Shown here: piece after piece, positions 5,150 through 6,648 of the stretch
How positions within the stretch are numbered: the stretch's first letter is position 1
Layout of the letters: each line of letters opens with the position of its first letter
Assembly (NCBI GenBank): GCA_016200785.1
Contig: JACQED010000321.1
Location: 1-10,263 of the forward strand
Length of the DNA: 10,263 bases
Reading direction: 5' to 3'
Origin: Chloroflexota bacterium
GTDB taxonomy: Bacteria; Chloroflexota; Anaerolineae; Anaerolineales; JACQED01
Translations under genes and position numbers: made by a program
Notes under the pieces: generated by a model
The model's input: the letters and a program-made list of their open reading frames with translations, nothing else
Told to the model about the DNA's origin: nothing
Databases searched by the model: none

Positions 5150-5635
5150 ATGGAACTGACACAAACATGGACGTGGGGATTGATCGGCGATTACCTCCTG
5201 CGCTTCGGCGCGGCGATACTCGTCGGCGTGGTGCTGGCGCTTCACCCGGTGCGCCTGCGCCGCTGGGGCGCTGGGCTGAACTGGGGCACGGTGCAGGCCC
5301 AGATTCTCATCGCCTTCGCCGGCGCGCTGATGGTGATCATGGTCGGCGAGAGCGTGGCGCGCGCTTTCGGGCTGGTGGGCATCGGCACGCTCATTCGCTT
5401 CCGCACCACCCTGCGCGACCCGCGCGACATCGCCGTGCTGTTTCTGCTCATCGGCCTCGGCATGGGATGCGGCATCAAGTTGTATCCGATCGTCGCGCTG
5501 GCGACAGCGGTCGTTTTCGTCCTGCTGTTCGCGCTGGAGATCGGCCGGCCGCCTGACAAGCAGGGAAAGAAAAGCAAGAAGCGCGAGGCCGGCGAGATCG
5601 CGCTTGGCCGGGACATCGAGGCCGCCAAGGCATAA
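5150..5635 (+). CDS. Small polytopic membrane protein, DUF4956-like (function unknown)
   Basis: ORF track gives 5144..5635. The ATG at 5150 has better SD spacing (AGAGG 5139-5143). The protein is largely hydrophobic with the motif GTLIRFRTTLRDPRDIAVLFLLIGLGMGCG, which I recall as characteristic of DUF4956, and a Lys-rich C-terminal tail. Family assignment is from memory only. Confidence 0.6.
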   Translation: MELTQTWTWGLIGDYLLRFGAAILVGVVLALHPVRLRRWGAGLNWGTVQAQILIAFAGALMVIMVGESVARAFGLVGIGTLIRFRTTLRDPRDIAVLFLLIGLGMGCGIKLYPIVALATAVVFVLLFALEIGRPPDKQGKKSKKREAGEIALGRDIEAAKA

Positions 5636-5646
5636 CGCGGCAGCCC

Positions 5647-6648
5647 ATGTTGCCCCTGGGCAAACTGCCTTCCGGCCTCTTGGCCGATCTGCTCTCGAAG
5701 CACGCCGCCGCCGATCCGCGCGTCGTCGTCGGGCCGGGCGTGGGCCTCGACTGCGCGGTGATGGATTTCGGCGACCGATATCTCGTCGCCAAGAGCGATC
5801 CGATCACATTCGCGACCGACGCCATCGGCTGGTACGCCGTGCAAGTGAACGCGAACGACATCGCCTGCTCGGGCGCGACGCCTCGTTTTTTCCTCGCCAC
5901 CATCCTCCTGCCGGAAAGCAAAGCCGATGCGGAAATGGCCGACACGATCTTCGCGCAAATCACGCGCGCCTGCGGCGAGATCGGCGCAAGCCACGTCGGC
6001 GGGCACACCGAAATCACGTATGGGATTGATCGACCGATTGTGATCGGGACGATGCTGGGGGATATCGAACGCGATCGGCTGATCACCGCGGGCGGCGCGG
6101 AAATTGGCGACGCAGTGATCGTGACGAAAGGCGTGCCGGTGGAGGCCACGGCGATCATCGCTCGCGAGAAAAGCGAAGCGCTGGCGGAAAAATTCTCGCC
6201 AGAGTTCCTTGCCGGCTGTCGCGACTTTCTTTATCAGCCGGGGATCAGCGTGGTGCGCGATGCGCGCATCGCCATCGGGGCCGGTCGGGTGACGGCGATG
6301 CACGACCCGACCGAGGGCGGCCTGGCCACCGGCCTGTGGGAACTGGCTGAGGCGTCGGGGCGCGGGATGGAAATCGAATTCGAGGCTGTGCCCATTTTGC
6401 CGGAAGGCCGCGCGCTGTGTGCGGCGTTCGGCCTCGACCCGATGGGAGCGATCGCCTCCGGTTCGCTCTTGCTCACCGCGCCGCCTCAGGAGGCTTCCAG
6501 GATTGTCGCCGCGCTCGCTGCGGAGAGAATCGCCGCGCACATCGTCGGGAGCGTAAGCGATTCTCCCGGCGTGCGAGTGCACGATCGTGACGGCGTCTCC
6601 CCCCTCCACCGCCCGGCGCGGGATGAGATTGCGCGACTGTTCGAATGA
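5647..6648 (+). CDS. AIR-synthase-related protein (PurM superfamily; HypE/ThiL/SelD-like ATP-dependent enzyme), specific function unknown
   Basis: 333-aa ORF. N-terminal PurM-like fold signatures GLDCAVMDF...VAKSDPITF (the DxAV motif), IGWYAVQVNANDIACSGATP, then a C-terminal AIRS_C-like half (RDARIAIGAGRVTAMHDPTEGGLATGLWELAEASG). It starts 11 nt after the DUF4956 gene, so is probably co-transcribed. Confidence 0.7.
   Translation: MLPLGKLPSGLLADLLSKHAAADPRVVVGPGVGLDCAVMDFGDRYLVAKSDPITFATDAIGWYAVQVNANDIACSGATPRFFLATILLPESKADAEMADTIFAQITRACGEIGASHVGGHTEITYGIDRPIVIGTMLGDIERDRLITAGGAEIGDAVIVTKGVPVEATAIIAREKSEALAEKFSPEFLAGCRDFLYQPGISVVRDARIAIGAGRVTAMHDPTEGGLATGLWELAEASGRGMEIEFEAVPILPEGRALCAAFGLDPMGAIASGSLLLTAPPQEASRIVAALAAERIAAHIVGSVSDSPGVRVHDRDGVSPLHRPARDEIARLFE

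Follow-up and report, generated by a model that had tools for sequence, protein, structure and literature searches.

DUF4956 membrane proteins usually work together with a VTC (polyphosphate-polymerase-like) protein, and enzymes of the PurM superfamily carry out ATP-dependent phosphorylation or dehydration of small substrates. How should a DUF4956 gene be read when its nearest downstream neighbor is a PurM-like gene? Such a pair lies in the 10,263-nt stretch analyzed here (the window, meaning the whole stretch; contig JACQED010000321.1 of the Chloroflexota assembly GCA_016200785.1, class Anaerolineae), where a short-form DUF4956 gene precedes a PurM-superfamily enzyme gene by 11 nt (stop codon TAA at 5633–5635, ATG at 5647), the spacing given by a first-pass annotation of this DNA. 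That annotation had suggested that the two genes, with the leader before them, form a small regulated module. Comparison with related loci points to a different history: the pair is best seen as a one-off juxtaposition created by a single insertion, and we consider it likely that the two genes form an operon by accident of that insertion and are not a functional module. The features at issue are the following.

4866–4893, + strand: promoter P1, TTGACA-16-TATAAT, 12 of 12 consensus matches
4899–5095, + strand: unit made of a small open reading frame (ORF) and a structured RNA, called here the small-ORF/RNA unit, identified by fold, covariation, and conservation
5101–5129, + strand: promoter P2, TTGACA-17-CATAAT with TG, 11 of 12 consensus matches, extended −10
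5150–5635, + strand: short-form DUF4956 (MgtC-like) membrane protein gene, PF16316
5647–6648, + strand: PurM-superfamily enzyme gene, PF00586 AIRS and PF02769 AIRS_C

How does this DUF4956 gene compare with its relatives? The ORF spans 5144/5150–5635 on the + strand, and the ATG at 5150 is the likelier start because GAGG stands at 5140–5143 and the resulting N terminus aligns with those of homologs. The protein exceeds the Pfam gathering cutoff for DUF4956 (PF16316; E = 3.3e-10, 40.4 bits versus 30.6), although the match is partial, covering protein residues 61–130 and model positions 37–108 of 169. It keeps all residues invariant in 21 homologs, including the RFR motif and RD, and these residues are common to the VTC–DUF4956 pairs (PF09359 and PF16316). 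In its five nearest homologs, which are VTC-paired and 49–57% identical to it, the VTC gene (PF09359) lies directly upstream with an overlap of 4–19 nt in 10/10 loci, bearing out the first-pass statement that VTC is the usual neighbor; a PurM-like gene is present in none of these 10 loci. Whereas such pairs are translationally coupled to VTC, the DUF4956 gene studied here has its own promoter and no VTC gene in the window, and a tblastn search of the window for a VTC remnant with six VTC proteins gave a best E value of only 0.48. Its VTC partner would be encoded elsewhere in the genome or be missing. The C-terminal tail of VTC-coupled short-form relatives, EPP[LM]P..[DE]EG[LP]L, is replaced in the window protein (5560–5635), which ends in REAGEIALGRDIEAAKA. 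GC content at third codon positions is 0.86 in this gene versus 0.75–0.83 in the neighboring genes, a base composition that we judge to be matching, and its protein cluster has one member from one contig. A literature search on DUF4956 function returned nothing relevant. Elsewhere, VTC–DUF4956 pairs adjoin CotH-domain genes (L083, 429–4450; L086, 1489–4404), and in a further locus (L084) a DUF1598 gene is near; these neighbors hint that the usual DUF4956 system belongs to a larger conserved cluster.

Is the pairing with a PurM-like gene found anywhere else? A tblastn search with the DUF4956 protein, covering up to 6 kb from the enzyme gene, gave no DUF4956 match at the best 80 species-level genome loci, and a hidden Markov model (HMM) built from 21 DUF4956 homologs and applied at E ≤ 1 recovered the window copy alone across those 80 loci and ~130 others, including loci found through a DNA motif of the small-ORF/RNA unit. 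The four closest relatives of the enzyme (72–80% identity) share the same synteny and none has DUF4956: their order is LigT (−), hydrolase (−; missing in one), 260–365 nt of intergenic sequence, the enzyme gene (+), and, where the contig reaches that far, a convergent gene of ~354 amino acids (aa) consistent with phosphofructokinase (PFK). In an intergenic alignment with the three of these relatives with DNA (L091–L093), window positions 4866–5095 are conserved and both P1 hexamers are invariant. The enzyme ATG follows the U-run of the unit's terminator by 9 nt in L093 and by 25 nt in L092; in the window, ~550 nt comprising P2, a Shine-Dalgarno sequence, and the DUF4956 ORF lie between the two. 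Parsimony over the relatives' synteny, which has no DUF4956, therefore favors a lineage-specific insertion of ~550 nt in the lineage of the window, and the pairing would be seen on this contig alone because the DUF4956 gene was inserted there.

The two promoters fit this history in different ways. Both are sigma-70-like in a scan that yields 0.3 such sites on average in shuffled sequence. P2 is without counterpart in the relatives and appears to have arrived with, or to have arisen for, the inserted DUF4956 gene. It begins with an 11-mer, TTGACAATCCT, that is identical to the start of P1 (5101–5111 and 4866–4876, respectively) and that could stem from duplication of part of the sequence or from a preference for an extended −35 context. 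Direct or inverted repeats around the insert, sought as the mark of a mobile element, were, this 11-mer aside, short and at chance level. The dual-promoter/attenuator leader of the first-pass annotation thus stands as to its two promoters but not as one leader: it resolves into an older, independent small-ORF/RNA unit and a second promoter tied to DUF4956.

The sequence of events we propose would begin with an ancestral order of LigT (−), alpha/beta hydrolase (−), the small-ORF/RNA unit equipped with a promoter and a terminator of its own, the PurM-like gene, and a convergent PFK gene. The PurM-like gene would have started a few nucleotides past the terminator, its expression presumably depending on terminator read-through. 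Some 550 nt with P2 and a solitary short-form DUF4956 gene would then have landed exactly between the terminator and the enzyme ATG. DUF4956 and the enzyme are probably co-transcribed, because they are separated by 11 nt, have no terminator-like site in that gap, and have a single promoter; P2 would now probably serve both genes, with any read-through from P1 adding to it.

What kind of enzyme did the insertion land beside? The 5647–6648 protein exceeds the Pfam cutoffs for AIRS (PF00586; E = 1.6e-19, 70.8 bits versus 24) and AIRS_C (PF02769; E = 4.3e-21, 76.1 bits versus 23.1), which together with its predicted structure supports membership of the PurM superfamily; the first-pass domain assignments for this protein and for DUF4956 were both correct. 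Its top NCBIfam matches are hypE (TIGR02124; 103.6 bits versus a cutoff of 251.6), thiL (TIGR01379; 95.1 versus 184.15), and selD (TIGR00476; 80.3 versus 125), all below cutoff, as are the remaining ThiL models (21–58 versus 204–441), purM (31.9 versus 236), and the PurL models (15–27 versus 525–783). These scores and the missing C-terminal Cys agree with the first-pass view that the enzyme lies outside HypE, ThiL, SelD, and PurM. The nearest solved structures by sequence are HypE (E = 1e-26 to 1e-29), SelD (1e-17), and ThiL (1e-15). An AlphaFold model of the enzyme (predicted local distance difference test score, pLDDT, of 92) superposes on HypE with a template modeling (TM) score of 0.79, on ThiL with 0.72, and on SelD with 0.68–0.75, at ~22% identity in each case, and the protein thus appears roughly equidistant from all three in sequence and predicted fold. 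A search for solved structures within its clade found none, and characterized members of the superfamily are only ~22% identical to it.

Single features both link the enzyme to its described relatives and tell it apart from them. HypE (PDB 2z1e, 3vyt) has in common with it the PurM fold and the H/DPTxGG motif in the C-terminal half, but HypE has GDT where the enzyme has GGH. HypE also has a C-terminal Cys, the site of carbamoylation and dehydration; this residue is absent from the enzyme, because both the protein and the family consensus end in ...ARDEIARLFE. SelD, the selenophosphate synthetase (PDB 3u0o), offers counterparts for two features of the enzyme: its near-invariant K6, in an N-terminal GK motif, aligns with K20 of Escherichia coli SelD, and its GGH aligns with GGHS. 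The N-terminal Cys/Sec-x-x-Lys of SelD, however, is not matched, as the enzyme begins MLPLGK and has no Cys or Sec ahead of K6. ThiL, the thiamine-monophosphate kinase (PDB 3c9t), is similar in fold at 22% identity but differs in the subcutoff score. The context is no closer to any of the three: among the nine window genes with Pfam support, there was no match to Hyp, Thi, Pur, or selenium families, so that hyp, selenium, and thiamine genes are all missing from the neighborhood, as the first-pass annotation had noted. The enzyme thus joins an N-terminal Lys and GGH of the SelD type to a C-terminal half of the HypE type, and it has no catalytic Cys. Two cysteines, C109 and C258, are invariant among 32 family members.

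How widespread is this enzyme? A word-index search returned at least 7,999 homologs at E ≤ 1e-5, the top 120 being 58–80% identical, and in the best 80 of at least 600 species-level genome loci the enzyme is 49–62% identical to the query. These loci come from Chloroflexota, Methylomirabilota/Rokubacteria, Gemmatimonadota, Armatimonadota, Planctomycetota, Nitrospinota, proteobacterial metagenome-assembled genomes, and plasmid pREB4 of Acaryochloris marina. Complete genomes with the enzyme include CP070811.1 and OZ241372.1. Sequence comparison places the enzyme in an orphan clade of the PurM superfamily that is large and strongly conserved, and the known activities of that superfamily make it most likely that a small substrate is phosphorylated or dehydrated at the expense of ATP. 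Its neighbors vary widely among the best 80 loci, and those that recur are scattered (ECF transporter genes in ~6–14 loci; HAD and TruD genes in 3–4). The ECF-transporter genes (EcfA, EcfA′, and EcfT), which adjoin the enzyme gene in several Anaerolineae (L016, L030, L050, and L001), are the sole mildly recurrent neighbor seen. The highest-ranking neighbor "clusters" proved to be shadow ORFs of the enzyme gene and were discarded. The Nit1C "AIR synthase-related" protein belongs to another clade (sll0787/MSMEG_0567), for which the enzyme scores 53 versus a cutoff of 321. A literature search on orphan PurM-like clades found nothing relevant.

Upstream of both genes lies the small-ORF/RNA unit, which we regard as a more interesting feature than the gene pair: it is well supported and absent from Rfam. 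All of its parts are on the + strand.

4906–4928: 5′ hairpin
4955–4963: box GCTATCCTA, a GCYATCC box
4970–4984: extended Shine-Dalgarno sequence
4988–5035: small ORF, MKNSGSPRAVAPLLK
4973–4984 with 5017–5029: helix A, by covariation
5010–5023 with 5041–5054: helix B, by covariation
5056–5090, with a U-run to 5095: intrinsic terminator

Is the small ORF a genuine part of this unit? An ATG stands 5–10 nt past GGAGGTG in 118 of 120 distinct versions, and its distance to a conserved GCGC block is 19, 22, 25, or 28 nt, which preserves a single reading frame throughout. The ORF runs to 15–20 codons, has its stop just ahead of the next conserved block, and has a consensus of roughly M-[DS]-S-S-x-K-x-S-A-[VA]-A-S-[LP]-[LP]-x-x-[RG]. 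Because the frame is kept in 118 of the 120 versions, we conclude that this predicted ORF is under selective maintenance.

The unit also folds well (z-score of −4.94 versus shuffled sequence) and ends in a strong intrinsic terminator, and covariation supports two of its helices. Helix B, formed by the S-A-V-A codons and the segment right past the stop codon, is 97.9% paired and shows 111 double changes versus 36.8 in shuffles (0/500 as high), and shifted-register controls are 12–50% paired. Helix A pairs the extended Shine-Dalgarno sequence with an in-ORF segment of the AUCACCUCC type and is 99.0% paired, with 21 double changes versus 5.9 in shuffles (0/500 as high), the formal test being confined to its 6-bp apex. 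Lower helix A failed a single fixed-column test because two sequence classes differ there by a one-nucleotide register (a bulged U versus a U-A pair). Helices A and B have alignment columns 85–88 in common and are therefore mutually exclusive. We take AUCACCUCC to be the 3′-tail sequence of 16S ribosomal RNA and AAGGAGGUGAU its full complement, and on that assumption the small ORF would have a maximal ribosome-binding site masked by an anti-Shine-Dalgarno mimic. Rfam searches with the whole window, and with the unit alone under laxer filters, gave nothing that reaches a gathering score; the best match to the unit was rli61 (22.9 bits versus 50), and all matches were hairpin- or terminator-like. 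A literature search for a Chloroflexi element combining a small ORF and an anti-Shine-Dalgarno sequence likewise found nothing relevant.

How does the unit relate to the enzyme gene across loci? A profile search placed it ahead of the enzyme gene at 10 of the best 80 genome loci. A degenerate DNA pattern matched 120 metagenome loci, 117 of them true; the other three (L119, L180, and L196) have no small ORF and are false positives. The unit is thus present in L004–L006, L013, L014, L033, L048, L054, L063, L069, and, less the false positives, L091–L213; these loci, ~130 in all, are Chloroflexota-type. Cultured relatives of the Thermoflexus, Ardenticatena, or Aggregatilinea types have the unit as well. 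A promoter-like site (at least 9/12) accompanies 106 of 121 elements, in 89 cases 40–69 nt before the ribosome-binding site, and 79 of 123 copies have a terminator recognizable under strict criteria. The enzyme gene follows the unit in 33 loci, where read-through is the likely source of its messenger RNA (mRNA), because the space past the unit's terminator is usually too short for another promoter. The motif-found metagenome sample, which is unbiased towards the enzyme, includes 94 loci whose downstream sequence extends for at least 600 nt: the next feature is the enzyme gene in 14 of these, a directly convergent PFK gene in 20, and other genes, including convergent HNH and HAD genes, in the rest, so that a co-directional gene right after the unit is found in a minority of loci. 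On these comparisons the unit appears to be a conserved, independently transcribed element that predates the DUF4956 insertion. The description that fits it best is that of a free-standing small gene whose product is a small-ORF mRNA or else a dual-function RNA, and in some lineages it is additionally the 5′ leader of the enzyme gene.

Among described systems, leader-peptide attenuators, Shine-Dalgarno-sequestering switches, and E. coli ssrS-ygfA come closest. They have in common with the unit a short ORF within alternative helices followed by an intrinsic terminator, and a downstream enzyme gene dependent on read-through, which is apparent in a subset of the unit's loci. The unit differs from them in that its ORF is without a run of regulatory codons, no anti-terminator was found, and most copies are not ahead of a co-directional gene. 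When the 3′ arm of helix B was compared with the terminator for anti-terminator pairing, no complementarity was seen, and the minimum-energy fold keeps both. We offer only tentatively, as something we rather doubt, that the unit is an Anaerolineae-wide ribosome-sensing switch, in which translation of the ORF would toggle the fold and, in lineages such as that of the window, set read-through into the enzyme gene. Under such a scheme, the maximal Shine-Dalgarno sequence AAGGAGGUGAU may be masked by the in-ORF AUCACCUCC, which can instead pair past the stop codon. More speculative still is that the Ser/Cys-rich peptide of the small ORF is itself the enzyme's substrate.

What other explanations could account for the locus? 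A true two-gene module, with DUF4956 and the PurM-like enzyme engaged in membrane-coupled activation or modification of a small molecule behind a dedicated leader, would suit the common strand, the short gap without a terminator, and the common promoter P2, and the loss of the usual VTC neighbor and C-terminal motif could mark a change of partner. Yet the pairing is absent from all 80 genome loci, from the other motif-found loci, and from the 10 DUF4956 loci; the closest relatives have no DUF4956 at this exact position; the enzyme family is found in many phyla beside unrelated genes; and the supposed leader is older than the insertion and occurs without either gene too. The module is not supported by these comparisons, and we regard it as very unlikely. 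An assembly chimera or a decaying gene fragment is more improbable still: the contig does come from a metagenome-assembled genome and the DUF4956 protein forms a cluster of its own, but the insertion sits precisely between terminator and ATG with synteny kept on either side, its base composition is like that of neighboring genes, and the gene has an intact ORF, the family-invariant residues, a Shine-Dalgarno sequence, and a near-consensus promoter. Several points nonetheless weigh against accidental insertion as the whole explanation. Neighborhoods were sampled for 80 genome loci out of at least 600 and for metagenome loci; the contig is only 10.3 kb, and a VTC gene or second DUF4956 copy may lie elsewhere; and co-transcription and read-through are deduced from sequence. 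The changed C-terminal tail and the strong promoter dedicated to it suggest, moreover, that the inserted gene is maintained and expressed, and a lineage-specific functional recruitment of DUF4956 may be compatible with the comparative data.

Two further alternatives concern the enzyme and the unit separately. Could the PurM-like protein be a divergent housekeeping ThiL, SelD, or HypE next to a generic membrane protein? These three families supply its top NCBIfam matches, its fold fits all of them, and K6 and GGH align with catalytic residues of SelD; yet every score falls below cutoff, both the C-terminal Cys and the N-terminal Cys/Sec are missing, and a clade that is 50–60% identical across phyla is only ~22% identical to any characterized member, all of which makes this explanation improbable. 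Less remote, if doubtful, is that the small-ORF/RNA unit acts in cis as an attenuator or riboswitch dedicated to the PurM-like gene, with a signal that would reveal the pathway of the enzyme. The 33 loci with the enzyme gene right past the terminator, and no room for a promoter, suit this idea, as do two exclusive covarying helices and a small ORF reminiscent of leader-peptide attenuators. The distribution runs the other way, with the enzyme at 14 of the 94 motif-found loci, 20 of which face a convergent PFK gene and others HNH or HAD genes, and with the unit at only 10 of 80 enzyme loci; nor does the coexistence of helix B and the terminator in the minimum-energy fold, without anti-terminator pairing, favor it. 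Accidental insertion downstream of a free-standing unit remains the account we prefer.

The remaining window genes, all on the − strand and all assigned by Pfam, are as follows.

319–1230, − strand: SPFH gene
1343–1900, − strand: DUF6174 gene, weak match
1897–3438, − strand: cation-efflux membrane domain fused to SPFH
3435–4055, − strand: LigT gene
4052–4840, − strand: alpha/beta hydrolase gene
6709–7782, − strand: PFK gene
7779–10238, − strand: GAF-GAF-PAS-cyclase gene

The fusion of a cation diffusion facilitator (CDF)-type efflux membrane domain with SPFH/Band-7 at 1897–3438 is unusual, and the second SPFH gene, at 319–1230, is two genes away; the combination resembles an HflK/C pair tied to a metal exporter. 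Between the co-directional genes at 319–1230 and 1343–1900 lies a near-perfect 69-nt hairpin (1262–1330), to which Rfam gave a subthreshold match, mir-4782, that we rejected as spurious. On the other side of the enzyme, the PFK gene and the gene for an 819-aa GAF-GAF-PAS-adenylate/guanylate cyclase overlap by 4 nt (7779–7782), and because of this overlap the glycolytic and the signaling gene are probably co-transcribed.

What does the locus mean for the two families? Both proteins are new members of known but uncharacterized families. Tight spacing and a common promoter are insufficient to establish a module, and here it is the comparative context that reveals an insertion. Two leads follow. 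One is a very large enzyme clade (at least 7,999 homologs), 50–60% identical from Chloroflexota to Methylomirabilota/Rokubacteria, Gemmatimonadota, and a cyanobacterial plasmid. The other is the conserved small-ORF/RNA unit, with covarying alternative helices around a mini-ORF that is predicted to be translated.

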